A stretch of 52,534 nt of DNA from a virus (Duplodnaviria; Caudoviricetes): positions 1 to 52,534 of IMG/VR virus record IMGVR_UViG_3300025411_000647. The stretch is one strand, 5' to 3'. The position numbers and the translations under genes were made by a program. The notes under the pieces were generated by a model. The model made no database searches and was not told the DNA's origin. It saw only the letters and a list, made by a program, of their open reading frames with translations. Position 1 is the first letter of the stretch. The number at the start of each line of letters is the position of its first letter. Of the stretch, positions 3,482 to 52,534 are shown piece by piece.

Positions 3482-4070
3482 CTTCTTCTTTCTCAAAAGG
3501 AAACTTCGGTAAATTTTGTTCTTTCCATTTCTGGATATCTTCTTTATTATACTTGCCTTCGTTAACTTTGTCAACAAATTCACGTAATACTTTATTCATC
3601 CAATCATTGAACGTCATGTCTTCTTCATGTGCTTGTTTAAAGGCAAACAACAACAAATCATCGGGCAAGTTTAAAGGAACGCTTACATCTGTGCTGTATT
3701 CTTCTCCTGCCTTGATAGCTAGACATTTTTGAATGAAATCATCATCGACTTCTAAATCTACATACTCAACATCATCCCAAGCTTCATTTAAGTTAATTAA
3801 ATGACGTTTAGCTTCTTTGGCATGCTTTTCACGCTTGTTCTCTGCGATTATGCGATAAGCACGATCATTGGTGTAATCACATACTGTTACTTCGTAAACC
3901 TTCTGTGTCTTGGTGCTGAATACAATATTAAAACTCCAGCCACCTTTGTCGTGGAGTCCGTTCCAGCTACTTAATTGATAGGAATTAGGACCATAACAAG
4001 CCCAACCGTAATCGCCACCTTCAGTGATTTTATAGTCGATTAATTCCATCCATTCTTTCATTGTAATCAT
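3459..4070 (-). CDS. hypothetical phage protein
   Basis: 203-aa ORF; C-terminal part may be ribbon-helix-helix-like. Confidence 0.7.
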   Translation of the reverse strand: MITMKEWMELIDYKITEGGDYGWACYGPNSYQLSSWNGLHDKGGWSFNIVFSTKTQKVYEVTVCDYTNDRAYRIIAENKREKHAKEAKRHLINLNEAWDDVEYVDLEVDDDFIQKCLAIKAGEEYSTDVSVPLNLPDDLLLFAFKQAHEEDMTFNDWMNKVLREFVDKVNEGKYNKEDIQKWKEQNLPKFPFEKEEDENQTSQ

Positions 4071-4639
4071 TATTCAAATCCTTGTTTAAGTAATCTCTTT
4101 TCTTCACATGAGTTGCAAATGGATCTCATCCATCCGCCGTCATTTTGCACTTCACTAGGATTACCGCATGACTCGCAAGTAACACCGCTTAGGCTTTCTG
4201 CTAGGCTAACCATCCCACTGATATAGTCATCGCCACCTGTATAGTAAAAACGTAGTGTGCCAAACTTTTCTTTAACTTGATCCAAAGTTACTTGCTGAAT
4301 AGGTTCAGGAATAACTATAGGGTACCGATCAATAAGCTCTTGTCTACGCTTTTCTTTAAACTCTCCATTAATTGTATTCTTGTACTCTTCATCAAACAGT
4401 GTAGAGTCTCCAGCCTTAAGCTGTTCGGACATCCGGTTAAATTTAATAGCAACTTCACGCTGACGTTCACGCCAATCAATGTGATTTTGAATATTGCCCA
4501 TAAGCTGATTCAAAATATTAAACCAACCATCGCCACAATCAAAGCCCCAGCACATTGCGGTCTCAGTCATGGGCTTGTCACGGTTTACCATCATCTTTGG
4601 GTAAACCTTACATAGGTATTCATCTAGTTCTTGTCTCAT
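4070..4639 (-). CDS. hypothetical phage protein with C-terminal Zn finger
   Basis: QVKEKFGTLRFY motif; CESC...CNSC. Confidence 0.75.
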   Translation of the reverse strand: MRQELDEYLCKVYPKMMVNRDKPMTETAMCWGFDCGDGWFNILNQLMGNIQNHIDWRERQREVAIKFNRMSEQLKAGDSTLFDEEYKNTINGEFKEKRRQELIDRYPIVIPEPIQQVTLDQVKEKFGTLRFYYTGGDDYISGMVSLAESLSGVTCESCGNPSEVQNDGGWMRSICNSCEEKRLLKQGFE

Positions 4640-37442: not shown

Positions 37443-37520
37443 TGGAGCTACGGGAGGGATTTGAACCCCCGGTTTTACGGATTTGCAATCCGCTGCATTG
37501 GGCCACTCTGCCACCGTAGC
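37443..37520 (-). tRNA. tRNA-Cys(GCA)
   Basis: Cloverleaf, loop TT-GCA-AA, U73, encoded CCA. Confidence 0.9.
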
Positions 37521-37529
37521 ATATCTATT

Positions 37530-38063
37530 TCAATAAGCCCACGATACAAAAGAATATCGTGTACCTTTGGTAACTTCTTCGACTCTATGACGATATAAGA
37601 AAGTTGAAGGAAATACTAACACATCACCTTGATTTAAATTTATAACTCGATCGTTCATTATAAATTCTCCGCCTTCGTAGTCATCATTCAATGATCCTAC
37701 AATACTTAGCACCGGAATACCATCATCTTGATGTCGCCTAATTAAATCAGTATGTTCGCTCATCACTGTTCCTGTTTTATATCTATTAAATCGAGGTTGA
37801 CTAAATTGAGTAATTAACCCATCTAAACCAGTTTCCGCATAGTAATTTGTAATGCAATCTATTAAAATAGGTTGTAACGCAATTGATTCATTATTATAAA
37901 GTACATCGAGTTCGCGTGTCGGACGACTCTTTGCACTGTCGTCAAACGGAGTATACCATTTATGCATTTCCCAATTAGTATTACTTTCACACACAGTGAT
38001 TAACTTATTGCATACATCCTGCGGAATTAAATTTTTAACTTTTATATAAGAATCGACGGACAT
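37530..38063 (-). CDS. 2OG-Fe(II) oxygenase (prolyl-hydroxylase-like)
   Basis: HTD, DYEGGE, FPS...H.V..V..G.RYS. Confidence 0.9.
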   Translation of the reverse strand: MSVDSYIKVKNLIPQDVCNKLITVCESNTNWEMHKWYTPFDDSAKSRPTRELDVLYNNESIALQPILIDCITNYYAETGLDGLITQFSQPRFNRYKTGTVMSEHTDLIRRHQDDGIPVLSIVGSLNDDYEGGEFIMNDRVINLNQGDVLVFPSTFLYRHRVEEVTKGTRYSFVSWAY

Positions 38064-38064
38064 T

Positions 38065-38652
38065 TTATTCGTCTGCTTCTACTAAAATTGTATTAAATGC
38101 AATACTGATTCGATCTTCTTTACTCAAATTAGGTTGTGTATAGTGCATCAACCAAGAAGGAAACATTATCAATAATCCAGGCGATGGCGGTAATGTACAC
38201 AGTTGTGAATTAAATGATCCGGGCTTACCAATTGCATCTGTTGGAATTGTATGATAAAAAGAAGTTACAGGATTCAACATTTCTATGCATCCTGAACGTT
38301 CTTCTGCTTTTACATAATATACACCCGAAAGGCACGAATGTGGATGCATATGAGCTTTATTATAATTCAATGGTTTGTTTATGTTAATCCACACATTGGA
38401 AATAATTTGTTTAAATTTATCGTTAAGCCCGATTTCTTTATGAAGCGTATTTGCCTGCTCTTCGATAGTAGTTACGAACAATTTCATTTCATCTGCTAAA
38501 CTAACATCATTGCTTTGCCAACCACCCTCATTGCTAATAAAAACTCCAGGATCTGTACCCATTACTGTGTAGGCGTACTTTGTTAGTTCGTCGTTATTAA
38601 AATTTAAGTTATCTGTTGAAACAAAGTTTGAAAAAATTGGTATAATATTCAT
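38065..38652 (-). CDS. 2OG-Fe(II) oxygenase (TIGR02466-like)
   Basis: SN.GGWQS, HMH, SGVYY, FPSWL.H, RISIAFN. Confidence 0.9.
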   Translation of the reverse strand: MNIIPIFSNFVSTDNLNFNNDELTKYAYTVMGTDPGVFISNEGGWQSNDVSLADEMKLFVTTIEEQANTLHKEIGLNDKFKQIISNVWININKPLNYNKAHMHPHSCLSGVYYVKAEERSGCIEMLNPVTSFYHTIPTDAIGKPGSFNSQLCTLPPSPGLLIMFPSWLMHYTQPNLSKEDRISIAFNTILVEADE

Positions 38653-38664
38653 ATTTTTATATTT

Positions 38665-38739
38665 TGGTAGGACGTGACAGGTTCGAACTGCCGACCTCTT
38701 CCGTGTAAAGGAAGCCTTCTACCGCTGAATTAACGTCCC
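38665..38739 (-). tRNA. tRNA-Val(TAC)
   Basis: Cloverleaf, CTTCC-TT TAC AC-GGAAG, CCA. Confidence 0.9.
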
Positions 38740-39011
38740 AAATATTTTCCACTACGATCAATAGCACGATCGCGAGGAGTGTTAAATTTAATCTTCTTCA
38801 TGTATTCTGGACCAATCTCTCCATTTTGAAATTCAAGTAAGGCTGTTACATTAGTATGAACATCTTCAAACTTTTGGCTACTAGCATTTTGACGTCGTAG
38901 TTCACGACTACGTGCTGCTGCCATAATAACAAGATTAAACCTATTGCCGCCGGCTTGTTTTACACAAGCATCGTTATTGAGTTGAGTTCCGCGACTGATA
39001 TATTGTGGCAT
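38730..39011 (-). CDS. rpoZ: RNA polymerase omega subunit homolog
   Basis: C......NRFNLVIMAAARSREL...VTALLEF..G.I omega pattern; start reassigned to MPQYIS. Confidence 0.8.
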   Translation of the reverse strand: MPQYISRGTQLNNDACVKQAGGNRFNLVIMAAARSRELRRQNASSQKFEDVHTNVTALLEFQNGEIGPEYMKKIKFNTPRDRAIDRSGKYLGR

Positions 39012-39033
39012 ATGATATCCTTTGTAAAAACTT

Positions 39034-39062
39034 ATTATATAATCTTTATTGACTAATGTCAA
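39034..39062 (-). promoter_or_regulatory. sigma70 promoter for rpoZ-tRNA-Val
   Basis: TTGACA-17-TATAAT. Confidence 0.85.
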
Positions 39063-39064
39063 CA

Positions 39065-39649
39065 CTATTCTCGATATTTCACGTCTGCAGCCAAAATAAA
39101 TCTATAATTGTTACTTTGCACAATACCTGGACGATGCCATATTTTACTTGGGTAAATTAACCAAGTATATTCGCTTGGGCGTACAAATAATTTGCCGTCA
39201 CCAGTAGGCCCGTTTGGAGCCATTTCTGTACCGCAAGTATCTCTATCAGTAACATCTTCAGGAATATGCAAATACATAATTCCACTCATTTTTTTTACAA
39301 TGCTACCTTCTTTTACATCCTGTGCATGATGATGCCACAGATTGTCTCGATCTTGCTGCCCTGCCAAATTAGTCATGAAACTCCATGCCATCATATCACT
39401 AACTTGAACTTCTCGACCAAGATACATAAACACACTCATTAAAAAACTCATGCGGTATTTTAACCAAACTGGATCTTGTATTTTAAATAAATTTTCCTCT
39501 GTTTGAAACAGCGGACTATTTTTAAAATACTTACCACTATTGATGATTTGTTGTATAGTGTTTATAGCATACTTTGTATCATCAGATGTGATTACACTGC
39601 TGAAATCGAATTTTTTAAATATGCTATCTTGGTCGATTACGGGTATCAT
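39065..39649 (-). CDS. 2OG-Fe(II) oxygenase-like protein
   Basis: WHHH, SGIMYL, YPS..WH, R. Confidence 0.7.
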   Translation of the reverse strand: MIPVIDQDSIFKKFDFSSVITSDDTKYAINTIQQIINSGKYFKNSPLFQTEENLFKIQDPVWLKYRMSFLMSVFMYLGREVQVSDMMAWSFMTNLAGQQDRDNLWHHHAQDVKEGSIVKKMSGIMYLHIPEDVTDRDTCGTEMAPNGPTGDGKLFVRPSEYTWLIYPSKIWHRPGIVQSNNYRFILAADVKYRE

Positions 39650-39909
39650 GCTGTACGTTTAATAATGTGATAACCAAACTGTGTTTGTACAGGCTCACTG
39701 ACACTGCCTACGGCTGTTGCAACTGTAGCATCTTCAAATGGTTTAACCATTGCACCTGGTCCGAATTCTCCTAGATCTCCGCCGTTGCGACCGCTCGGAC
39801 ACTTGCTGTGTTGTGCGGCTAGTTGCGCAAAATCGGCACCTTCACTTATTTGATTTTTTAGGTTTACTGCTTCGATCAGTGTTGGTACTAGTATGTGGCT
39901 TGCTCTCAT
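39646..39909 (-). CDS. ppiC: parvulin peptidyl-prolyl isomerase
   Basis: ASHILV, F..LA..HS.CPS...GGDLG.F..G.MV..FE, TQFGYHII. Confidence 0.9.
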   Translation of the reverse strand: MRASHILVPTLIEAVNLKNQISEGADFAQLAAQHSKCPSGRNGGDLGEFGPGAMVKPFEDATVATAVGSVSEPVQTQFGYHIIKRTA

Positions 39910-40012
39910 TTTCTTTTTCCTTTTTAAAAATTTTATCCCAGTTGTTACTAAACGTATTTTGATCCACACTATACGGACGTGGACGACTTCCTTTTCCTGC
40001 TTCACCTGCCAT
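39842..40012 (-). CDS. small basic phage protein
   Basis: GKGSRPRP...NWDKIF motif; GGAG SD. Confidence 0.55.
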   Translation of the reverse strand: MAGEAGKGSRPRPYSVDQNTFSNNWDKIFKKEKENESKPHTSTNTDRSSKPKKSNK

Positions 40013-40601
40013 TATGTTCTCCAATTTCATCTAAGTAGCAATTAAATGCAATGCTAATCCTATCAGCACCGCTACGATTGGGCTGAACGCTGTGCATCAT
40101 CCAAGGTGAAAATATCAAACATGATCCCACTTCAGGATGTTCCCAATGCGTTCCGCTATTGTAATTATTATGTTGTACTACTGTTGAATTTGATATAGTA
40201 TAGTTATGCTCTCTTACTGGATGCAAGAATTCAATTGCACCAGATGCTGGTTCAGCTTTAACATAATATACACCTGTAAAAAAAGAATTAGGATGAGTAT
40301 GAGTTTTATTATAATCGCCTGGGCGATTTAAATTTATCCATGCTTGTCCTACTACAGGTTTAAACTTGTTAGAGAATCCCAAACTACTATATAATTCAAC
40401 AAGTTTAGTATCAACTTGATCTATCAATGGTTGCAATTCAATCCTATCTTGTATTAATTTACTTTGCCAACCACCTTCATTGCTTGAAAACACACCAGAG
40501 TCCGATTGACTCAAATCATAAGTGAGTTTTTCTAAAATGCTATTGTCGACATCTAAATTAGATTTAGAAAGCAAACTGATAAAAAGAATCTTTGTTTCCA
40601 T
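40002..40601 (-). CDS. 2OG-Fe(II) oxygenase (TIGR02466-like)
   Basis: SNEGGWQS, HTH, GVYY, H.V, RISIAFN. Confidence 0.9.
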   Translation of the reverse strand: METKILFISLLSKSNLDVDNSILEKLTYDLSQSDSGVFSSNEGGWQSKLIQDRIELQPLIDQVDTKLVELYSSLGFSNKFKPVVGQAWINLNRPGDYNKTHTHPNSFFTGVYYVKAEPASGAIEFLHPVREHNYTISNSTVVQHNNYNSGTHWEHPEVGSCLIFSPWMMHSVQPNRSGADRISIAFNCYLDEIGEHNGR

Positions 40602-40616
40602 TAAACACTCTACAAT

Positions 40617-40693
40617 TGGTCGGAGTACAAGGATTCGAACCTTGGACCTCCTGGTCCCAAACCAGGCGCACTACCAGGCTGTGCTACACTCCG
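40617..40693 (-). tRNA. tRNA-Pro(TGG)
   Basis: Cloverleaf, C1-G72, loop TT TGG GA, CCA. Confidence 0.92.
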
Positions 40694-40699
40694 ATATTC

Positions 40700-41308
40700 T
40701 TAGACAAAGTTTGGTCCGCATATCCATCCTACTAAACTACGTCTAACACCTTTAGTAACAGGTGCTACACTGTGAGGAATGAATGATGGGAATAAAACCA
40801 TGTCGCCTTTATTTAATTCTACTACAGCAGGATCTTTTAAATAATGAAATTTTAATTCGCCGCCTTCGTACTCACTTGGATCATTTAATAAAATACTAAA
40901 TGAAATTTTTCTATTAAATCCTGTAGGATCTCTTAATGTACTATCACAATGTACATCATAATTTCCTAAATCTTCGCTTCGATATACGCTATATTGTAAT
41001 GGTTCTAAGTAACTAACACTATATTTAAAATTTTGAAAATTAACAGTTAATGCTACATCAATAATCCTATCATATAATTCTTTAAATAATTGCATGTCGT
41101 CTAACCACATTATGTCAGTTATTCGAGATGTAATGTCAAGGTTGCGTTTTTCACCTTGTTCTCTGTTATTTTGAACAGCAGCTGATTGTAATTTTTCAGG
41201 ATTCAAATTGGCATAATTTTCTACACTAGAAATTAAATTATTGTCAATTGCCTTTACTACAGTATAAGTCCATGCTTGTGGACGATTAGGCGCTTCAAAC
41301 CAAAGCAT
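40700..41308 (-). CDS. 2OG-Fe(II) oxygenase (PKHD/prolyl-hydroxylase-like)
   Basis: HCD, RKIS, EYEGGEL, FPSF..H.V.PVT.G.R.SLV.W. Confidence 0.9.
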   Translation of the reverse strand: MLWFEAPNRPQAWTYTVVKAIDNNLISSVENYANLNPEKLQSAAVQNNREQGEKRNLDITSRITDIMWLDDMQLFKELYDRIIDVALTVNFQNFKYSVSYLEPLQYSVYRSEDLGNYDVHCDSTLRDPTGFNRKISFSILLNDPSEYEGGELKFHYLKDPAVVELNKGDMVLFPSFIPHSVAPVTKGVRRSLVGWICGPNFV

Positions 41309-41324
41309 ATAAACCTTTTATTAT

Positions 41325-41398
41325 TGGAGCGGAGTGAGAGAATCGAACTCTCGACCGAAGATTGGAAATCTGCTGTTTTACCATTAAACTAACCCCGC
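41325..41398 (-). tRNA. tRNA-Gly(TCC)
   Basis: GCG start, loop TT TCC AA, U73, CCA. Confidence 0.9.
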
Positions 41399-41403
41399 AT
41401 ATC

Positions 41404-41967
41404 TTACCATTCAGATGTGTCATAAACAAACCATCCTGTAATTATGTATTTTACTTCATTGTCACATGGCATGCCTTGATGCATGTGAGTCCAGTCGGCT
41501 GGCCAAATCAAAGTTAAACCTTTTTCAGGTTTTACTTGTAAATTTTGATACAAAAATTCAGTGCCGCCACCTTCTTCTATATCATTCAAATAAGTCATGT
41601 AAACTAAATGACGATTGATAATATGTTTAAAACCATTTTGTTCGCAATGCCATCCTTTATAGTATTTTCCAGCGTCATATCTTTGAACTTTAACATCTGG
41701 AAACAACATCCATTTTGCTAAATGCATATCTAATGTAGGAGCAAATTCTGTTTTATATTTGTTCAAAGCTGTTGCCAATTCACTAATATATCTAGATTTT
41801 ATATCAGACGAAAACTCTGCTAGTTCTGAATTCTTATATGTTTTTATGCCTGACTTGAATCTCTCTAAATTATTTTCAGATTCCGTATATATATCATCAC
41901 ATAGTTTAGTATCTATGTAATATCCTCTGATAAATGGATTTTGTGAATTTAATGTATGTTCGCGCAT
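41404..41967 (-). CDS. 2OG-Fe(II) oxygenase
   Basis: WHCE, YLND.EEGG.TEF, WPA.WTH.H.G, KYIITGW. Confidence 0.9.
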   Translation of the reverse strand: MREHTLNSQNPFIRGYYIDTKLCDDIYTESENNLERFKSGIKTYKNSELAEFSSDIKSRYISELATALNKYKTEFAPTLDMHLAKWMLFPDVKVQRYDAGKYYKGWHCEQNGFKHIINRHLVYMTYLNDIEEGGGTEFLYQNLQVKPEKGLTLIWPADWTHMHQGMPCDNEVKYIITGWFVYDTSEW

Positions 41968-41980
41968 AATTTAAAAATTA

Positions 41981-42182
41981 GTGTCTAGCTACTCCCACCA
42001 CAGGAGCCCTAGACCGAGCTGTTACTCTGTCCATATCATTTCTTCTTCTGGCTAGGTTGATAGTCCTAACCCACGATAGTTTTAAGTCATCCATATAGCG
42101 GATCTCTAAGGCCATTTCCGTGAGTGCCCGGAGGATATGGTAACCTCCTACCCACTTTATTCTCGGAAAAGTGTAACCGGGA
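41981..42182 (-). ncRNA. candidate structured ncRNA (~200 nt)
   Basis: Non-coding and GC-richer than its flanks; at least 5 hairpins plus long-range complementarities; directly 3' of tRNA-Thr. Confidence 0.55.
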
Positions 42183-42185
42183 TTT

Positions 42186-42261
42186 TGGTGCCCCTTGTCC
42201 GACTCGAACAGACCACCTACTGATTACAAATCAGTTGCTCTACCAGATGAGCTAAAGGGGC
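42186..42261 (-). tRNA. tRNA-Thr(TGT)
   Basis: Cloverleaf, loop TT TGT AA, CCA. Confidence 0.92.
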
Positions 42262-42266
42262 AAATT

Positions 42267-42488
42267 TTATTCTACGTTTACTGCACTAGTTTCACTAACT
42301 TGATAGTTACTGGTTCCACGAGGTGCTCGATCTTTCTTCTCAGGCTTAATAACGACTTCGCTACATAATTGAGCATCGATCATCATACGTTTAAATTGAT
42401 TACGCTGTTCTGCTGTAGATCCTTTCATTAATGCAAGCATACGTTTGTATGATTTTGCAAACTTAAATGTCTTACTTGGTTTTAACAT
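42267..42488 (-). CDS. small basic hypothetical protein
   Basis: 73 aa, AAGGA SD, fills an inter-tRNA gap. Confidence 0.65.
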   Translation of the reverse strand: MLKPSKTFKFAKSYKRMLALMKGSTAEQRNQFKRMMIDAQLCSEVVIKPEKKDRAPRGTSNYQVSETSAVNVE

Positions 42489-42508
42489 AACTTTCCTTTT
42501 ATATAACT

Positions 42509-42598
42509 TGGCGGAGCGACTGGGAGTCGAACCCAGTCAACGCTATTACACGTTGTACGGATTAGCAATCCGCTGCCTTACCGTTCGGCCACCGCTCC
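42509..42598 (-). tRNA. tRNA-Ser(GCT)
   Basis: Long variable arm, loop TT GCT AA, G73. Confidence 0.92.
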
Positions 42599-42626
42599 GT
42601 GCGGTATTTTACTTATACTAACTAAC

Positions 42627-42713
42627 TGGTGCGAATGGCCGGAATCGAACCGGCATGGACTTGCGCCCGACAGATTTTAAGTCTGTTGTGTCTACCTATT
42701 TCACCACACTCGC
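42627..42713 (-). tRNA. tRNA-Leu(TAA)
   Basis: Long variable arm, loop CT TAA AA, A73. Confidence 0.92.
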
Positions 42714-42723
42714 AATTTAATCT

Positions 42724-42797
42724 TGGCATCCCCCCAGGGATTTGAACCCCGACCAACAGTTTTGGAGACTGGTATGCTGCCATTACACTAGGGAGAC
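42724..42797 (-). tRNA. tRNA-Trp(CCA)
   Basis: Loop CT CCA AA, G73, CCA. Confidence 0.88.
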
Positions 42798-42803
42798 ATT
42801 GAT

Positions 42804-42917
42804 TGGTACTTGCTGTGGCGCTTGAATCCACGATAGCCCTTCTCTTCCTGGCCGGTCCTTGTACATGGTCGACATTGACAAGTATTTCGGTGTTCCAGTG
42901 TAGCTACTCAGCAAGTA
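42804..42917 (-). ncRNA. tRNA-like RNA: acceptor and T arm with a long irregular stem instead of D/anticodon arms
   Basis: TACTTGCT/AGCAAGTA-CCA; GTGG-ATTCAAGCG-CCAC; nested pairings TAGCT/GGCTA, CTGG/CCAG, CCG/CGG, CTTGT/ACAAG. Confidence 0.65.
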
Positions 42918-42922
42918 TAACT

Positions 42923-43012
42923 TGGCGGAAACGGTGAGATTTGAACTCACGGACGGTTGCCCGTCGACAGTTTTCAAGACTGTTGCAATAAACCGGACTC
43001 TGCCACATTTCC
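42923..43012 (-). tRNA. tRNA-Ser(TGA)
   Basis: Long variable arm, loop CT TGA AA, G73. Confidence 0.92.
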
Positions 43013-43088
43013 ATATAGAAACACACTAAGGGCAATGCCATCTTACGATCCCAGTATGTCGGGTGTTGCTTAATGTGTTTTTATATGG
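43011..43088 (-). repeat. long-stem spacer hairpin, copy 1
   Basis: CCATATAAAAACACATT...AGTGTGTTTCTATATGG; same arms at 46639-46717. Confidence 0.8.
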
Positions 43089-43168
43089 TGCCCCAAGCGA
43101 GACTCGAACTCGCACACCGAAGTACTGGCTTCTAAGACCAGCGTGTCTACCAATTCCACCATCGGGGC
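43086..43168 (-). tRNA. tRNA-Leu(TAG)
   Basis: Loop CT TAG AA, short UUCG-capped variable arm, A73. Confidence 0.9.
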
Positions 43169-43182
43169 ATTTGCTTTTGATT

Positions 43183-43247
43183 TTTTAAAGAACGTTACTA
43201 ATTACTTAGTATGTGACTATTATACTGTCTTTATACATTAGAGTCAA
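43183..43247 (-). promoter_or_regulatory. internal sigma70 promoter followed by a boxA-like element
   Basis: TTGACT-17-TATAAT (43247-43219), then CGTTCTTTAAAA (43194-43183) resembling rrn boxA. Confidence 0.7.
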
Positions 43248-43253
43248 CAACTT

Positions 43254-43883
43254 TTAAAATATTTTATTGCCTAAAGGATTATTTTCAAACCCAACTAAAC
43301 CTTTCCAAAATGTATTAAACGATATACTTCGTCTTGGTTTAGCATCATCCGGTAATTCACCTACAGAGTGACCTACGTTCGATAAAAACAGTACTAGATG
43401 ATATACCAAGTTTCCATGATCTGTACCAATCATATCTTCTAAACTTATTTTAGGTGTTAGACTTGGCAAATAGTAAGGTACATCTTGACAATATGATTGT
43501 AATGTAAATTTTAAATTAGCAGGATTATCGTCTAAAAATAGTACTCCACTCACTACACTGAACGGGTGTACATGCTCGTGATGTGATTCCGATGCTGTAG
43601 TTATATTAGACCATGAATTAGTAATTTCTAAACCTTCAAAATTCTTACCTACAAAAATTTTATGTGTATTTTGCAAGTAGTTTATGCATTCAGAAATTAA
43701 AAATTGTTTTGTATTTGTAAATTCTTCAGTATCAAGCAAATTTAAATTTTCACTAATACTATTATTAACATTGCGTATGTATGTTTGTTCGGATACATGC
43801 TTAGTAAGCGACTCAAAGTCGATAAAAGCTGAAATATCTTTAATTAATACAAAATTTTGAGCTGTATTTAAAATACTATTCAT
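43254..43883 (-). CDS. 2OG-Fe(II) oxygenase (TIGR02466-like)
   Basis: SW.N, HVHPFS.VSGV, HSV, R.SISFNT. Confidence 0.8.
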   Translation of the reverse strand: MNSILNTAQNFVLIKDISAFIDFESLTKHVSEQTYIRNVNNSISENLNLLDTEEFTNTKQFLISECINYLQNTHKIFVGKNFEGLEITNSWSNITTASESHHEHVHPFSVVSGVLFLDDNPANLKFTLQSYCQDVPYYLPSLTPKISLEDMIGTDHGNLVYHLVLFLSNVGHSVGELPDDAKPRRSISFNTFWKGLVGFENNPLGNKIF

Positions 43884-43921
43884 TAAGTTTCCTCTATTGA
43901 CTAGTACTTATTAAAATATAT

Positions 43922-43996
43922 TGGCCGGCCTTGCAGGAATCGAACCCACACCCTCTGTTTCGAAGACAGAGATGATATCCATTTCACCAAAGGCCG
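43922..43996 (-). tRNA. tRNA-Arg(TCG)
   Basis: Loop CT TCG AA, A20-type D loop (TGGATA), CCA. Confidence 0.88.
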
Positions 43997-44001
43997 ATAT
44001 A

Positions 44002-44076
44002 TGGTCCGGCTGCCAGGAATCGAACCTGGATCAATAGCTTAGAAGGCTACTGCACTATCCATTGTGCTACAGCCAG
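44002..44076 (-). tRNA. tRNA-Arg(TCT)
   Basis: Loop CT TCT AA, CCA. Confidence 0.9.
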
Positions 44077-44101
44077 TTAATGCTATTATACACTAAAAAC
44101 T

Positions 44102-44179
44102 TGGTACCCCCACTCTGATTCGAACAGAGAGAACTTCTCCTTTTGAGAGAGATGACTTTACCAATTTGTCCATGGGGGC
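44102..44179 (-). tRNA. tRNA-Leu(CAA) with short variable loop
   Basis: Loop CT CAA AA; only about 6 nt of variable region; A73. Confidence 0.8.
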
Positions 44180-44187
44180 GAAAAGAG

Positions 44188-44263
44188 TGGAGCGGGTGAT
44201 CGGAATCGAACCGACGACAATCACGTTGGCAACGTGGCGCTCTACCAGCTGAGCTACACCCGC
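44188..44263 (-). tRNA. tRNA-Gly(GCC)
   Basis: Canonical, loop TT GCC AA, U73. Confidence 0.93.
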
Positions 44264-44264
44264 G

Positions 44265-44876
44265 TTAAAAATCTGGTTTTTGAAAGTTAATATTAAAACT
44301 AATACTTATTCTTTCATGATCGGTGTAATTAGTACTTACATCATGATCTAGCCAACCGGGAAATAAAATAATTTTTCCTTCGTGTGGCTTATGCACAATA
44401 TCTACTTTTAGATGTTCTAAAAAGTAACTCATCCAAAATTGAGTGGTAGGATTTCTAAATCCGATTGAACCATCTACTCCGTTTGTTTTAAAATAATATA
44501 CTCCAGAAATATCACATCGACCATGATTGTGTAAATGAGCATATTCATTTTTACCTGTTTTAGTCATCCAACATTGCATAACTCTGTATGCTTGAAATCG
44601 TTCTGCTGGGGCATCGATACTTTGTAAGTATGCTGTTACATGATTGGATAATTCTTTTTCAAAAGTTTTTAAATTGTAATCTAACAACAAATTTTTAGTA
44701 AATGTAGTATCTGATATCTGATGTGTGCCAGGATGCCAATATTCTTTGTAAGCGAACAATTTTTTTGAATTCAAATCTTCTTCTACTATAGTAAATTCTT
44801 TTTGAATTTTATCAAAAATATTACCCTCTATCATGTCATGATATATTGGAACAGAAAAAAATCCTTGTGTTGGCAT
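44265..44876 (-). CDS. 2OG-Fe(II) oxygenase (TIGR02466-like)
   Basis: HNH, ISGVYY, LFPGWL.H.V, RISISFN. Confidence 0.9.
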   Translation of the reverse strand: MPTQGFFSVPIYHDMIEGNIFDKIQKEFTIVEEDLNSKKLFAYKEYWHPGTHQISDTTFTKNLLLDYNLKTFEKELSNHVTAYLQSIDAPAERFQAYRVMQCWMTKTGKNEYAHLHNHGRCDISGVYYFKTNGVDGSIGFRNPTTQFWMSYFLEHLKVDIVHKPHEGKIILFPGWLDHDVSTNYTDHERISISFNINFQKPDF

Positions 44877-44891
44877 GTTTATTTTAAAAAG

Positions 44892-45139
44892 TATTAGTAG
44901 AAAGCACTAAGAGTTTTGGTCCCGATTAAGGAAACTATGGCTACCCAGGATCTACAGTCCTGCTCTATTGGTCTAGCAAACATGGAGCAAATTTTAGTAC
45001 ATTAGGTATCTTATGCTGTAAACACTCAACCTCTCAGACTATCACATATAGTTTATAACTATGTTTTTCTCCGCAACTTTCCAGGTTGCAAATACTTGTT
45101 CTTACGAAATGTTTATATGCCTCGTGCTCTCTACTAATA
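44892..45139 (-). ncRNA. candidate structured ncRNA (~250 nt) closed by a 16-bp stem
   Basis: TATTAGTAGAGAGCAC...GTGCTTTCTACTAATA terminal pairing; internal hairpins; no ORF. Confidence 0.5.
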
Positions 45140-45219
45140 ACTTTACTTATAAAGTGCCAGATTGTTCACCGCACAATCTTGGCAAAAGCGGGGGTCTGTC
45201 TTGAAAAACTATATTTGAT

Positions 45220-45927
45220 TTACATCAGATCCTGATGTCTAAACATTTCTTCCAAAGATCCATATTTTTGGTATCCAAATTTTATAGTAAACGCTAACCT
45301 ATTTTTACTACCTTGATTAGAAACATTATGTATAGTGTCTGTCTTAATAAAAGTGATACGATCTATGTTGGTACTTGCAATATGTTTTAATTGTACATGC
45401 GGTCTTATATAAGATGCAAAAAAACTATAAGGATATATTTCTCTAGTGTAATTACGTATCTCCTCTTCGTCATCGCCTACATCATTATTGTTGTACCAAT
45501 AGTTAACTGTGGTTTCATAATTTAGAATAGGAACCATCATGGCAAACTGTATTGCGCTTGGCAATCTATCTAGGTCTTTTTGATCAATACTAAGACTTGC
45601 AAAATCGGGATGATTAATTATAGTTTGTTTAACTCTATTCATGTACTCATCATTTTTGTCTTCTCTCAATCCGTCTATATGCTTGAGAGTTTCTGTTTTG
45701 GGCGGTACACATATTAGTCCTATTTCTTCAATGCAACTCGTTACCCTTGAATCCAAAAAAGATTTCAATATGGGAAAATTTTCAATAGACACAATGAAGT
45801 ATCCGTCAGTAAGTATATCGTCTCTCAATAATTCGGGATATTTCAGCTTGACATAGTCAATAGCTTCATTTTGAATCTCTCTAAAATTTTCTACATTCAA
45901 TTTTTGATACAACATTTTATTGTCCAT
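45220..45927 (-). CDS. cupin/2OG hydroxylase-like protein
   Basis: HID...HNV.N...R; TATAAATA 5 nt upstream of the ATG. Confidence 0.65.
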   Translation of the reverse strand: MDNKMLYQKLNVENFREIQNEAIDYVKLKYPELLRDDILTDGYFIVSIENFPILKSFLDSRVTSCIEEIGLICVPPKTETLKHIDGLREDKNDEYMNRVKQTIINHPDFASLSIDQKDLDRLPSAIQFAMMVPILNYETTVNYWYNNNDVGDDEEEIRNYTREIYPYSFFASYIRPHVQLKHIASTNIDRITFIKTDTIHNVSNQGSKNRLAFTIKFGYQKYGSLEEMFRHQDLM

Positions 45928-45949
45928 AAATTTATTTATAAACAAAAAA

Positions 45950-46025
45950 TGGTGCAACCTCCAGGAATCGAACCTGGTTCAATGGTTCTTCAGACCACCG
46001 CTATGACCACATCAGCTAAAGTTGC
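45950..46025 (-). tRNA. tRNA-Phe(GAA)
   Basis: Loop CT GAA GA, CCA. Confidence 0.88.
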
Positions 46026-46026
46026 A

Positions 46027-46118
46027 TGGTACCAGCGGAGGGGATCGAACCCTCTCAAGAACGCTAATCTGGCGCTAAAAGTCTTATAAGGACTCTCTGA
46101 CTTCCAAGTCTCGCTGGC
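46027..46118 (-). tRNA. atypical tRNA with TAT anticodon (Ile-AUA reader?)
   Basis: Acceptor GCCAGCG/CGCTGGT, 1-nt connector, mini D arm GACT-TGGA-AGTC, loop CT TAT AA, long variable arm, canonical T arm. Confidence 0.75.
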
Positions 46119-46125
46119 ATTAAAT

Positions 46126-46201
46126 TGGGGTGTCTTACCGGTATCGATCCGGTACTACCGCTTTCACAGAGCAGGGTGCAGGCCACTACACTAAAGACAC
46201 C
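46126..46201 (-). tRNA. tRNA-His(GTG)
   Basis: G-1:C73, loop CT GTG AA; T loop is ATCGATA. Confidence 0.88.
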
Positions 46202-46212
46202 ATAAATACTTT

Positions 46213-46419
46213 ATGGACTACAATGACAAATATACTGAATTCTTAAATTTATACAAACTCAGCGAGCAACCATTTAGTCCCCGAAAATCTTATTCTGCTT
46301 GTAAAGAGTTTAAAAACTCATTCGAACGTATTGAAAAAGAATTTATTCCTACCGAACTTAAACAATGGCAGGCCCACTTGGGATCGAACCAAGAACGACG
46401 GAATCAAAATCCGTTGTGA
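46213..46419 (+). CDS. possible small protein antisense to the tRNA operon
   Basis: Fills the His-Gln gap; TAAATA 4 nt before the ATG; 3' end overlaps tRNA-Gln antisense. Confidence 0.4.
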   Translation: MDYNDKYTEFLNLYKLSEQPFSPRKSYSACKEFKNSFERIEKEFIPTELKQWQAHLGSNQERRNQNPL

Positions 46420-46439
46420 TACCATTTCACCATGAGCCA
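46366..46439 (-). tRNA. tRNA-Gln(TTG)
   Basis: Loop TT TTG AT, weak 1-72 pair, G73. Confidence 0.9.
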
Positions 46440-46445
46440 ACAATT

Positions 46446-46521
46446 TGGTGGTAATAGCTGGACTCGAACCAGCGATAGACTGCGTATGAAGCAGTTGCAT
46501 TAGCCACTATGCTATATTACC
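46446..46521 (-). tRNA. tRNA-CAT (elongator Met; Ile2 not excluded)
   Basis: G1-C72 paired, loop TT CAT AC. Confidence 0.8.
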
Positions 46522-46638
46522 AAATTCTAGCCGGTTACGTGTTTTTATCATCCGGCATATTAGGAACAGCCCAACCCTAATATCGTCTACAGAATAAATC
46601 ATGAGCCATAGCTGTCTATTCCAGCGTCAATGGTAATA
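46515..46638 (-). ncRNA. candidate four-way-junction RNA upstream of tRNA-CAT
   Basis: Three hairpins closed by TATTACCA/TGGTAATA. Confidence 0.45.
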
Positions 46639-46717
46639 CCATATAGAAACACACTTGATATAGTAAATTACTTTATCACGGATGAACCCGAATTTAGTCA
46701 AATGTGTTTTTATATGG
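46639..46717 (-). repeat. long-stem spacer hairpin, copy 2
   Basis: CCATATAAAAACACATT...AGTGTGTTTCTATATGG. Confidence 0.8.
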
Positions 46718-46790
46718 TAGGACGTATTGGATTCGAACCAATGACCAATAGATTAAAAGTCTACTGCTCTACCAACTGAGCTAACGTCCC
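46715..46790 (-). tRNA. tRNA-Lys(TTT)
   Basis: Canonical, loop CT TTT AA. Confidence 0.93.
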
Positions 46791-46819
46791 ATCATCTTGC
46801 CACTCTTGTCACTATTCAT
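46781..46819 (-). CDS. 12-aa mini-ORF MNSDKSGKMMGR ending inside tRNA-Lys
   Basis: AAGGAG SD 7 nt upstream; peptide resembles the rpoZ C-terminus DRSGKYLGR. Confidence 0.5.
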   Translation of the reverse strand: MNSDKSGKMMGR

Positions 46820-46842
46820 GACAGATCTCCTTTTTAAAAAAT

Positions 46843-46919
46843 TGGTAGCCTTACTCTGACTCGAACAGAGGACCTATGCGTTATCAACACATTGCTCTAA
46901 CCAACTGAGCTATAAGGCT
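46843..46919 (-). tRNA. tRNA-Ile(GAT)
   Basis: Loop TT GAT AA. Confidence 0.93.
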
Positions 46920-46921
46920 AA

Positions 46922-46997
46922 TGGTGGAGGTTACAGGGATCGAACCTGCGACATTTTGCTTGCAAAGCAAACGCTCTCCCAACTGAGCTAAACCCCC
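46922..46997 (-). tRNA. tRNA-Ala(TGC)
   Basis: G3:U70, loop TT TGC AA. Confidence 0.93.
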
Positions 46998-47002
46998 AAA
47001 AA

Positions 47003-47076
47003 TGGTTGCGGGTGATGGAATCGCACCACCAACTGGAGCTTATGAGACTCCCGAGATACTATTTCTCTAACCCGCC
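47003..47076 (-). tRNA. tRNA-fMet-like (CAT)
   Basis: Unpaired 1-72 (G/A), 3' CCCGCAACCA, loop CT CAT AA; T loop TGCGATT. Confidence 0.78.
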
Positions 47077-47081
47077 AAACT

Positions 47082-47157
47082 TGGCTCCACAGGGTGGGCT
47101 CGAACCACCGACCAAATGATTAACAGTCATCTACTCTACCGACTGAGCTACTGCGGA
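47082..47157 (-). tRNA. tRNA-Asn(GTT)
   Basis: Loop CT GTT AA, G73. Confidence 0.93.
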
Positions 47158-47163
47158 ATAACT

Positions 47164-47238
47164 TGGTACACGGTACGGGAATCGAACCCGTCTTACTGAC
47201 GTGAAAGGCCAGTGTCCTAACCGATAGACGAACCGTGC
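47164..47238 (-). tRNA. tRNA-Glu(TTC)
   Basis: Loop CT TTC AC. Confidence 0.92.
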
Positions 47239-47247
47239 ATACTAACT

Positions 47248-47322
47248 TGGCGGCTCCAAGGAGAATCGAACTCCTATTAATGGCGTGACAAGCCACCGTA
47301 CTAACCATTATACTATGAAGCC
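47248..47322 (-). tRNA. tRNA-Asp(GTC)
   Basis: Loop TT GTC AC, G73. Confidence 0.92.
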
Positions 47323-47328
47323 AAAATT

Positions 47329-47414
47329 TGGTGGAGGAAGTAAGATTCGAACCTACTCATCCATTGGAAACAGATTTACAGTCTGCCGCGCCTCTCCAAC
47401 TGCGCCGTTCCTCC
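47329..47414 (-). tRNA. tRNA-Tyr(GTA)
   Basis: Loop CT GTA AA, extended variable arm. Confidence 0.92.
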
Positions 47415-47664
47415 ATGTCTTAATTATAACACTCTCCCGCTATGCTGTCAACCGTTATGCATACGGTAGAGGAGAGTGTGTATTAAAAGCCACTAACGAC
47501 ACATGCTATGCACAACAGTTTTCATGACTGCTTGTGGCAATGGCTTTTAATACGCTGTAATTTTTCACACTAGAAGAAGTGGTTCATCCTACAGGCCGCC
47601 CATTCGCCCATGTTTTAAGTGCGGGCTAGGATCTCGTTTCCTATACACACTTTTTCGAAAGTCT

Positions 47665-47702
47665 AAAAACAAAAAACCCCAGGGTTGTTAATCCTAGGGT
47701 CC
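47665..47702 (-). terminator. intrinsic terminator (attenuator) upstream of the tRNA array
   Basis: GACCCTAGG-9nt-CCTGGGGTT followed by TTTTGTTTTT. Confidence 0.85.
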
Positions 47703-47751
47703 TTGGAGTTTAAATGTAAACTTAGTTTACAAAATGTCCTCCCGGACCCTA
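47695..47751 (-). promoter_or_regulatory. antiterminator hairpin, mutually exclusive with the terminator
   Basis: TAGGGTCC-G-GGAG (47751-47739) pairs with CTCC-AA-GGACCCTA (47708-47695); inner TGTAAAC/GTTTACA stem. Confidence 0.75.
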
Positions 47752-47876
47752 CTATTAATCTCTGGTGTGCGATCATATGATAAACTTCCGCCATTAATCG
47801 CTGACCAAGAACAGGCTATTACACCTGCCAGTTTGGGCATCGTATTAAATTGCTGATGTTTAAAACTCGATTGCAT
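47727..47876 (-). CDS. 49-aa leader peptide containing all 20 amino acids
   Basis: MQSSFKHQQFNTMPKLAGVIACSWSAINGGSLSYDRTPEINSRVREDIL*; between the promoters and the terminator; weak GAG SD. Confidence 0.7.
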   Translation of the reverse strand: MQSSFKHQQFNTMPKLAGVIACSWSAINGGSLSYDRTPEINSRVREDIL

Positions 47877-47933: not shown

Positions 47934-47962
47934 ATTGTAGCACCTTGCTACAACTGCGTCAA
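47934..47962 (-). promoter_or_regulatory. sigma70 promoter P2 of the tRNA operon
   Basis: TTGACG-17-TACAAT. Confidence 0.8.
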
Positions 47963-48017: not shown

Positions 48018-48046
48018 ATTGTATTATATATAGTCTCTTATGTCAA
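48018..48046 (-). promoter_or_regulatory. sigma70 promoter P1 of the tRNA operon
   Basis: TTGACA-17-TACAAT; shares TACAATAGAGACTAGTTA with P2. Confidence 0.85.
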
Positions 48047-48070: not shown

Positions 48071-48199
48071 TTACAACGATTCGTATTCATCCTTGCCTAC
48101 ACCACACTCGGGGCAGGTAAAGTCTGCTGGCAAATCTTCCCATACACCTTCTGTTTCCTCATCGTGGACATGACCACATACTACGCATACGTGTTCCAT
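48071..48199 (-). CDS. rubredoxin (42 aa)
   Basis: CVVCGH...WEDLPADFTCPECGVGK; GGAGG SD. Confidence 0.9.
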   Translation of the reverse strand: MEHVCVVCGHVHDEETEGVWEDLPADFTCPECGVGKDEYESL

Positions 48200-48648
48200 T
48201 ATAGTGCCTCCAAAACTTTCTTGTAAGCAAGAGCGTGACGCTCTTCAACTTTCTTCAAAGCCGCAAAACGTTTTTCTGCTTTTTTAAGCATTTGAACAAA
48301 CTCACTAGCGTGTTCTCTGCTTTCGGCAATTTGAGTTTTGGCTTCTTTAGCTGCCGCATAGTCCCCTTCTTCCATTGCCTTGTCTAAAAATTCAGGATAC
48401 ATTACTGTGAACTCATATGTTTCACCTTCGATGGCTTTTTGTAGGCACTCCTGAGTTGTTGGCTTGCCAATTAGCAATTCTAAATGCCCCCATGCGTGTA
48501 GTAACTCTTGATCAGCAGTGTGTTCAAAATGTTTAGCTACATCCTCAAAGCCTTCTGCTCTTGCCAATTTGGCAAAATAGCGATACTTGATGTGAGCTTG
48601 TGACTCACCGGCAAACGCCGATTCTAAGTTTTTAATTGTGATAGACAT
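48199..48648 (-). CDS. rubrerythrin (ferritin-like domain only)
   Basis: NL..AFAGESQA..KY..FA..AR.EG, E..H, EGE.YE, E.EH; start MSITIKNL with AGGAG SD. Confidence 0.9.
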   Translation of the reverse strand: MSITIKNLESAFAGESQAHIKYRYFAKLARAEGFEDVAKHFEHTADQELLHAWGHLELLIGKPTTQECLQKAIEGETYEFTVMYPEFLDKAMEEGDYAAAKEAKTQIAESREHASEFVQMLKKAEKRFAALKKVEERHALAYKKVLEAL

Positions 48649-48783
48649 TTTTTTTCTCCTTTGTGTGTGTTGTCTTACTAGTTTTATTGTAATAGTATTT
48701 AACAATAAGATCGAGCATTTTAATTGATTTTTTAATAATTATTTTAATAACGATAATAGAAAAAATCAATAACAATTAGTGGT

Positions 48784-52293: not shown

Positions 52294-52294
52294 T

Positions 52295-52321
52295 AAAAAA
52301 GGCACTCGAAAGTGCCTTTTT
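52295..52321. terminator. bidirectional terminator after tmRNA
   Basis: A6-GGCACT-CGAA-AGTGCC-T5. Confidence 0.85.
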
Positions 52322-52534
52322 GGTTAAGTTTGGTGACAAGGATCAACCAATCCTCGCGAGGGCAGTTTCTTAGGCTGCGATTGCAAATTCTGCATCATTA
52401 GCAGAAGCTAATGTTACTGGAACTTGGAAAAACTCGAATGTATTTGCTTTTGCATTTACGTTATTTGCTTGATTTACAGTCATCGCCTACTGTGTTGCCG
52501 TCTCTACTATCTACCCCTGTCGAAACCATGGCAG
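52322..52534 (-). ncRNA. ssrA: tmRNA, coding piece (5' end beyond the window; probably two-piece/permuted)
   Basis: 5' ...CTGCCATGGTTTCGACAGGG; TAAAT-GCA resume site; tag AKANTFEFFQVPVTLASANDAEFAIAA* (52453-52370); terminal pseudoknot. Confidence 0.85.

Follow-up and report, generated by a model that had tools for sequence, protein, structure and literature searches.

Arrays of transfer RNA (tRNA) genes are common in phages, and we know of almost no account of how they are regulated. The question of what might control such an array is raised by a 52,534-nt stretch of viral DNA (Duplodnaviria; Caudoviricetes), positions 1 to 52,534 of the IMG/VR record IMGVR_UViG_3300025411_000647, which is referred to below as the window. 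On its minus strand, an array of 27 tRNA genes covering all 20 amino acids lies downstream of an intrinsic terminator, and the terminator lies downstream of a short open reading frame (ORF), here called the leader ORF. A first-pass annotation of the window had read this arrangement as an attenuator whose leader peptide samples every amino acid. Based on a comparison with relatives, the element is probably a ribosome-mediated transcription attenuator with a one-of-each leader peptide, heading tRNA arrays, and it probably lets the phage raise its tRNA output whenever translation falters. The parts of the window that are needed first are listed here.

48018..48046, minus strand: distal sigma70-type promoter, TTGACA-17-TACAAT, 11/12; upstream tandem counterpart in relatives
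47934..47962, minus strand: proximal sigma70-type promoter, TTGACG-17-TACAAT, 10/12, with a TG extension
47727..47876, minus strand: leader ORF, 49 sense codons and TAA, with all 20 amino acids by codon 39

The leader ORF agreed with the first-pass description in its length, its completeness, its 37 distinct codons among 49 and its synonymous codon sets. The two consensus-like promoters said to precede it were also found, the -10 element of the proximal one ending 57 nt before the leader ATG, as was the tRNA array on the same strand.

Matches to the leader peptide were obtained at 68 IMG/VR loci and at 47 further loci from a distant subclade. Two sets were used for counting, namely a first set of 52 complete distinct sequences and a second set, from the distant subclade, of 34 distinct loci (32 in the counts of promoters and of ORF2, a neighbouring small ORF of similar size). 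Protein clusters matching the leader peptide numbered 52 at 90% identity and 86 at 50% identity (profile). The element heads same-strand tRNA arrays in more than 100 viral contigs of up to 383 kb, all uncultured, and the clade that carries it is that of uncultured freshwater jumbo phages (giant lake phages). Of the 71 loci that carry the terminator motif, 68 are followed on the same strand, at a distance of 206-966 nt, by the start of an array of up to 31 tRNAs, and the remaining three end within 463 nt; in the second set, same-strand tRNAs follow in 34/34 distinct loci. Because the first tRNA of the array varies among relatives (Tyr, Asp, Ile, Val, Pro, Ala, Arg, Glu and others), the constant partner of the element is the array and not one tRNA. 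When 50,697 phage records were searched by blastn and tblastn, the element was not found in cultured phages, the only hits being similarity to tRNA-Tyr and chance matches. The neighbouring 388-aa protein showed just 35% identity to Bacteroides phage proteins.

Amino-acid composition of the leader peptide

Of the window's 246 ORFs of 30-49 aa, the leader alone contained all 20 amino acids; in the 40-60-aa range the full set was held by 3 of 149 ORFs. The chance baseline was obtained from the same phages: all 20 occurred in 5.5% of 49-residue segments of their long ORFs (about 5% for 48-49 aa), in 3.1% (21/669) of other ATG-started ORFs of 46-51 codons, and in 1.0-1.5% of 38-40-aa segments of their real proteins. 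Given the baseline of about 5.5%, the completeness of a single leader is not significant alone. The check proposed in the first-pass annotation, a comparison across homologs, was the informative one: as far as sequence comparison can tell, the significance lies in the retention of all 20 amino acids among relatives.

All 20 amino acids were found in 49/52 distinct leaders of the first set, in 43/52 protein clusters (seven were without Cys only and two without Cys and Leu), in 28/34 sequences of the second set and in 57/80 distant cluster representatives with a median pairwise identity of 42%. In 45/52 sequences the set was completed by codon 37-41, ahead of the antiterminator strand described below. 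Segments of the 388-aa protein family of the same phages, binned by identity to a reference, served as an empirical null. The fractions that retained all 20 amino acids were as follows.

Identity 40-49%: 0.6% of segments of the 388-aa family; 5/5 leaders
Identity 50-59%: 14% of segments of the 388-aa family; 4/4 leaders
Identity 60-69%: 30% of segments of the 388-aa family; 15/16 leaders
Identity 70-79%: 33% of segments of the 388-aa family; 19/20 leaders
Identity 80-89%: 45% of segments of the 388-aa family; 3/3 leaders

For the 40-codon prefix, the full set was kept in 42/48 leaders as against 4-19% in the null. When residues were shuffled within the alignment columns of the 80 representatives, the mean number of complete sequences was 18.4 and the maximum was 31, and none of 2000 shuffles reached 57. 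The rare residues were mobile. Cys, mostly single in each peptide, was spread over 29 alignment columns and was missing in 11 of the 80 representatives as against 26 expected; Tyr was missing in 1 as against 13.5 expected, and where the usual Tyr was lost another one appeared elsewhere. Most of the 20 residue types occurred one to three times per leader, with no codon runs, and ORF2 usually held 14-18 residue types. The diversity of the conserved short ORF thus exceeds the empirical null across relatives, as the first-pass annotation had expected, and the all-20 composition appears to be under selection, with rare residues that shift position yet persist.

This behaviour bears on a rival explanation, in which the leader is a highly expressed small-protein gene or dual-function messenger RNA (mRNA) with a somewhat leaky terminator of its own. 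Its peptide of about 47 aa would act in trans, for example on translation or the tRNA machinery, the long 3' hairpin would stabilise the mRNA, and the location before the tRNAs would be a matter of conserved gene order. We consider this unlikely: it leaves the retention of all 20 amino acids with mobile Cys, Tyr and others unexplained, and no relative of the peptide was found in Pfam, PHROG or the ESM Atlas. It would account for the core AKQxGxMPxxW...DRTPE, which is conserved in position even among the clusters of 42% median identity, and for the fact that gene callers predict the peptide as a hypothetical protein in many samples.

The sampling was also analyzed at the level of isoacceptors. 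The window's leader covers 26/26 phage anticodons (controls: mean 19.4, maximum 24, n=2000). Among relatives, anticodon coverage was 91% compared with 76% in controls and was complete in only 6/65, Lys-CUU and Leu-CAA being frequently unsampled. Isoacceptor-level design was rejected as a family property on this count, the 26/26 of the window being exceptional. Of the pan-codon sampling proposed in the first-pass annotation, the amino-acid level was upheld and full anticodon coverage was not; the leaders appear to sample by amino acid and not by every isoacceptor.

Incomplete isoacceptor coverage would suit another explanation, in which the same attenuator senses global translation status and the full amino-acid set merely avoids bias. 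Global status would here mean ribosome availability, host shut-off, toxins or antibiotics that slow ribosomes, or uncoupling of transcription from translation. General ribosome-perturbation attenuators such as bmrB-bmrCD, vmlR and PA5471.1 do without codon runs in their leader peptides (compare PMC4191407 and PMC9226507). Such a sensor would have no need for every residue, yet all 20 are retained far above the null with apparent compensation, and the full set is packed upstream of the antiterminator strand. This explanation is judged quite unlikely.

Alternative RNA structures and the reading frame of the leader

The structural features of the leader RNA in the window, all on the minus strand, are listed in order of transcription.

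47794..47848, minus strand: conserved three-tier hairpin within the leader ORF, codons 10-28 (RNAalifold consensus)
47739..47751, minus strand: antiterminator 5' strand, codons 42-46, with GGGTCC (GGGTCC in 81/83 distinct relatives)
47715..47731, minus strand: antiterminator apical hairpin, containing the stop codon (sequence variable, hairpin retained in relatives)
47695..47708, minus strand: antiterminator 3' strand (CTCC..GGACCCTA), overlapping the terminator 5' arm (GGACCC in 83/83)
47665..47704, minus strand: intrinsic terminator, stem 47699-47693 with 47683-47677, 9-nt loop, T6GT5 tract 47676-47665

The first-pass annotation had stated that codons 42-46 are complementary to a region including the 5' arm of a terminator about 25 nt past the stop codon. 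Both statements were borne out. In the window, 47751-47739 pairs with 47708-47695 through 8 bp, a 1-nt bulge and 4 bp, the 3' strand includes the first four bases of the terminator 5' arm, and the terminator stem starts 24-27 nt past the stop. The pairing lies within the minimum-energy fold of the 276-nt leader (-83.2 kcal/mol, z score -6.0), which was equalled by none of 200 shuffled sequences. The window's terminator was missed by the consensus terminator scan because its loop is 9 nt long and the limit of the scan was 8 nt.

In relatives the terminator, a GC-rich 7-bp stem (12 bp including an A/U extension) followed by T6GT5, was near-invariant in the 52 sequences and was also present in the second set. 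Among the 83 distinct 3' segments that gave the motif counts above, the closing pair of the antiterminator was A-U in 39, G-C in 39, G-U in 4 and mismatched in 1. An inner helix that extends the first one was present in the minimum-energy fold of 83/83 segments (mean z score of the inner region, -3.7), and the apical hairpin on top of it was highly variable in sequence. Folding of both conformers, which had been proposed as a check, gave means of -31.2 kcal/mol for the antiterminator and -17.8 kcal/mol for the terminator alone in the 52 sequences, and both were conserved. The terminator is the fold that forms once the 5' strand is masked (-15.8 kcal/mol in the window), and the two structures are mutually exclusive because both use the CCC(Y) bases. 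The gap from GGGTCC to the stop codon was 14-17 nt in 51/52 sequences and that from the stop to GGACCC was 23-32 nt. With the stop so fixed, a terminating ribosome would occupy the inner helix together with the hairpin, and the terminator arm would stay unobstructed.

RNAalifold applied to the whole leader yields the terminator conformer only, so the antiterminator was tested separately. In one antiterminator alignment, MAFFT placed the GGGGTCCC group one column off, and the 15 'not paired' cells that resulted were spurious. The hairpin over codons 10-28 comprised the RNAalifold column pairs 54-58:104-108, 66-68:95-97 and 76-79:86-89, with some two-sided changes; it might be guessed to act as an RNA polymerase pause or synchronising hairpin. 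No upstream pairing partner of the antiterminator 5' strand, that is, no segment-1 anti-antiterminator, was identified. The leader RNA matched no Rfam 15 family, the six matches being at chance level (at most 19.4 bits), and no match to the T-box riboswitch model was found at E values up to 1 over 16.5 kb and up to 10 over 656 nt.

In one relative, L189 (about 4060-4125), a stretch reaching from the antiterminator strand as far as the terminator 3' arm has apparently been lost. Its leader frame continues into the ORF2 region, and the locus resembles a natural terminator-deletion variant.

The unusually good fold of the leader would also suit a structured small RNA without coding function, ending at the terminator, in which the ORF is a by-product of conserved sequence. 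The high conservation of third codon positions (majority frequency 0.834, compared with 0.875 for first and 0.891 for second positions) and the lack of a strong ribosome-binding site fit this explanation, which we nevertheless regard as highly improbable. In all 52 complete relatives the leader ATG is invariant and the frame is open without an in-frame stop. Distinct indel events were multiples of 3 in 6/6 cases in the first 40 codons, as against 1/16 between the stop and the terminator. In one relative group, shifts of +2 and +1 around the antiterminator strand reframe GGGTCC and the same stop is regained. Retention of all 20 amino acids, moreover, is meaningful only if the frame is read.

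The same data bear on the small-protein explanation. GGGTCC is read in frame 1 by 37 sequences and in frame 0 by 15, so that the C-terminal 8-10 residues are encoded in two frames while the nucleotide motif is kept, and synonymous sites show nearly the conservation of the other codon positions; both count against that explanation. The indel, frameshift and codon-position evidence indicates that the leader sequence is constrained both as RNA and as a frame. Family members have about 47 codons (46-51), and the leader ORF appears to evolve as a translated frame, an evolutionary pattern from which we infer translation itself.

Promoters, read-through and the region downstream

Promoters were counted at a score of at least 10/12 and, upstream, within the 320 nt before the leader ATG. 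One to four promoters precede the leader in every relative (52/52 in the first set and 32/32 in the second), and two or more do so in 45/52 and 27/32. Between the terminator and the first tRNA, a promoter was found only in 11/52 and 14/32 relatives (25/84). The features beyond the terminator in the window are given below.

47546..47653, minus strand: element B, conserved multi-helix RNA in the terminator-to-tRNA interval (blastn conservation, covarying helices)
47423..47451, minus strand: internal perfect promoter, TTGACA-17-TATAAT, 12/12, with a TG extension, 8 nt ahead of tRNA-Tyr
37443..47414, minus strand: 27 tRNA genes for all 20 amino acids, on the same strand as the leader, interspersed with ORFs and more promoters, tRNA-Tyr first

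ORF2 encodes 48-65 aa, charged and probably helical, has a good ribosome-binding site and is present in 39/52 and 20/32 relatives. No function was obtained for it from Pfam or PHROG. It starts at most 35 nt past the T tract, at 8-16 nt in the first set (e.g. L149:4216-4374, L167:4209-4370), so near that no room is left for a promoter and read-through is needed in most relatives; expression of ORF2 should depend on read-through of the terminator. This requirement also counts against the small-protein explanation, for which strong promoters and a strong terminator that bracket the leader as a unit, and a promoter of their own for the window's tRNAs, are favourable points. A candidate promoter inside the terminator (47720-47691, TTTACA-18-TAGGAT, 9/12) was considered as the driver of ORF2 and rejected, because its -35 element is the variable apical arm and its -10 element reads CAGGAT in about half of the relatives.

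ORF2 is missing from the window, where the order 3' of the terminator is element B (108 nt), a long hairpin, the perfect promoter and tRNA-Tyr. All 13 promoters of the window that score at least 11/12 lie on the leader strand. The internal promoter (47451-47423), the promoters inside the tRNA region and element B (47653-47546) had been missed by the first-pass annotation. Its claim that the leader gates a complete tRNA operon holds in so far as the element heads arrays behind strong promoters. It fails for the window: because the 12/12 promoter precedes tRNA-Tyr, and others lie inside the array, the leader there cannot be the only gate and is at most one input, which can only modulate a read-through component added to transcription from the internal promoter. 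The reading of the leader as an independent unit was dropped as a general one, since only 25/84 relatives have an internal promoter, and was kept as a limit for the window.

Element B, of about 110 nt, also lies between ORF2 and the tRNAs in relatives and contains several covarying helices. It has a hairpin with a GNAACGNG-type loop and changing stems, then the invariant ACGGGCGG, and after this a helix CUGUA:UACAG, which is CUACC:GGUAG in relatives. No Rfam match was obtained for element B; it might serve the untranslated array as a processing signal or through anti-termination (anti-Rho). At 47423-47480 (minus strand), the inverted repeat ACACTCTCC / GGGAGAGTGT flanks the -35 element of the internal promoter before tRNA-Tyr, and in read-through RNA it would fold as a hairpin adjoining the tRNA 5' end.

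Other genes of the window were recorded as well. The 3' part of a transfer-messenger RNA (tmRNA) gene, cut by the contig end, lies at 52294-52534 (minus strand); it matched the betaproteobacterial tmRNA model with 59.5 bits and the permuted tmRNA model with 55.4 bits. The phage thus has a tmRNA gene besides a full tRNA set, and the match may hint at a betaproteobacterial host. Genes for a rubredoxin (42 aa) and a rubrerythrin/ferritin-like protein (168 aa) are found at 48071-48705 (minus strand), just upstream of the leader promoters, and two 2OG-Fe(II) oxygenase genes stand amid the tRNAs (44265-44876 and 43254-43883). Several radical-SAM proteins are encoded at 10-17 kb; PHROG annotation of ten large window proteins gave radical-SAM matches only.

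Proposed mechanism and comparison with known systems

In the mechanism that we favour, one to four strong host-type promoters (mostly two or three) would drive a leader transcript of about 230 nt, containing an ORF some 47 codons long, the first 37-41 of which include all 20 amino acids. The last codons of the ORF would supply the GGGUCC plus GGAG strand of a long hairpin, and the terminator 5' arm would be its partner strand. On naked or slowly translated RNA the antiterminator, predicted to be about 13 kcal/mol stabler than the terminator, would fold first, and the polymerase would read on and deliver ORF2 (absent in the window), element B and the tRNA genes. An undelayed ribosome at the stop, 14-17 nt past GGGUCC, would keep the hairpin open, the terminator would form and transcription would end. 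A stall within the first 39 or so codons, or no translation at all, would lead to antitermination and to more transcript of ORF2, element B and the tRNAs; an untranslated leader is predicted to be ON. A shortage of any aminoacyl-tRNA, or a general slowing, would thus raise tRNA synthesis in a proposed homeostatic loop. Within the attenuator reading of the first-pass annotation, the frame, the retention of all 20 amino acids, the exclusive structures, the fixed stop geometry and the constant location ahead of tRNA arrays gained support from the comparison. Translation, stalling, termination and its efficiency, the direction of control, the sensed signal and the link to anticodon nucleases are inferred.

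Several observations weigh against this mechanism. As to composition, Cys is lacking in 9/52 clusters as well as in the 11 of 80 representatives mentioned above, and Val, Leu, Phe or Lys are occasionally lacking from leaders. For His, the column-shuffle expectation is too high, owing to alignment jitter in the variable N-terminal region. Asp and Glu are mostly supplied at codons 35-39 only, which would place the front edge of a ribosome stalled there at the antiterminator strand. The fixed position of DRTPE would not be required of a pure sampler, and its conservation hints at a role at the peptide or RNA level. As to geometry, footprint arithmetic suggests that a ribosome on the stop covers just the last 1-3 nt of GGGUCC, so that blocking would rely on coverage of the inner helix and on steric hindrance. 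As to initiation, the ATG is without a strong Shine-Dalgarno sequence (GAGA at about -10, AGGA at about -15). In the L149-L163 subgroup, moreover, the nearest promoter is situated about 40 nt before the leader ATG with its -10 element ending only 10 nt ahead of that ATG, and the leader mRNA would therefore be nearly leaderless.

As to transcription, 25/84 relatives have a strong internal promoter too, the window has its 12/12 promoter 8 nt before tRNA-Tyr, and further strong promoters lie inside its tRNA region at 43247, 39062, 38387 and 37411; the promoter scan was of the sigma70 type, which phage-specific promoters would escape. A point in favour of the mechanism is that contigs from 4/4 lake-water metatranscriptome runs examined span the leader, the terminator and element B, in some cases running across the terminator; contigs from RNA libraries prove neither transcription, nor 3' ends, nor read-through. 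Contig depth over element B was below that over the terminator and leader; such depth cannot rank the parts, the invariant terminator attracts relatives, and no conclusion was drawn from depth or from parts left uncovered. Many of the relatives' sequences stem from lake samples related to one another, and they do not count as independent.

The stronger claim of a universal shortage sensor is held more tentatively, as possible but short of probable. On this view, selection would maintain a codon for each amino acid ahead of the antiterminator strand. If starvation or a host anticodon nuclease depleted any one charged tRNA, the ribosome would stall, the antiterminator would stay, and the full phage tRNA set would be switched on. 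If so, the element would be a homeostat for viral translation capacity with one input per amino acid. The attenuator would tie viral tRNA supply to the real-time translation state, and a short synthetic leader would allow a direct test of whether phage tRNAs replace depleted or cleaved host tRNAs. As a compact reporter of any aminoacyl-tRNA shortage it might, if the reading is true, serve as a biosensor in cell-free systems and synthetic biology. Compositional selection with mobile but retained rare residues would be an unusual mode of protein-sequence evolution, and residue completeness could be used as a criterion in the search for similar sensors elsewhere. In the full-text search listings and abstract openings that were consulted, no attenuator before phage tRNA genes and no all-amino-acid leader peptide was described. 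If the reading is true, the element would be the first described control device of a phage tRNA array and the first attenuator whose leader is selected for completeness and not for a run of one codon.

Leader-peptide attenuators control the amino-acid operons trp, his, thr, ilvGMEDA and pheA and the synthetase operon pheST; a ribosome that reaches the stop leads to termination, and a stalled one leads to read-through. The present element is like them in its short leader ORF, presumed to be translated, its intrinsic terminator, and a competing hairpin built partly from a terminator strand and lying within reach of the ribosome. It differs in that it has no regulatory codon run but about one of each amino acid in about 40 codons, in that no anti-antiterminator was identified, in the greater length of its ORF (46-51 codons), and in the genes controlled, which would be phage tRNA genes and not biosynthetic or synthetase genes. 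In multivalent attenuation, as in the ilvGMEDA and thr leaders, two or three related amino acids are sensed via clustered codons; one leader likewise serves more than one amino acid here, with all twenty proposed to be sensed via single codons.

The attenuators bmrB-bmrCD, vmlR, those of the ermC type and PA5471.1-mexXY resemble the element in having no amino-acid-specific runs and, as is proposed for the element, in that any slowing of the ribosome in the leader relieves termination; they differ from it in sensing drugs and controlling efflux or ribosome-protection genes. We know of no report of a selected all-20 composition among such drug-sensing attenuators. Like T-box riboswitches, the element would place translation-supply genes under a choice between terminator and antiterminator tied to tRNA charging; a T-box, by contrast, binds uncharged tRNA directly, without translation and one tRNA each, and no T-box match was obtained here. 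The element shares the architecture of known attenuators, and what appears to be new in it is the all-20 leader and the proposed control of tRNA genes.

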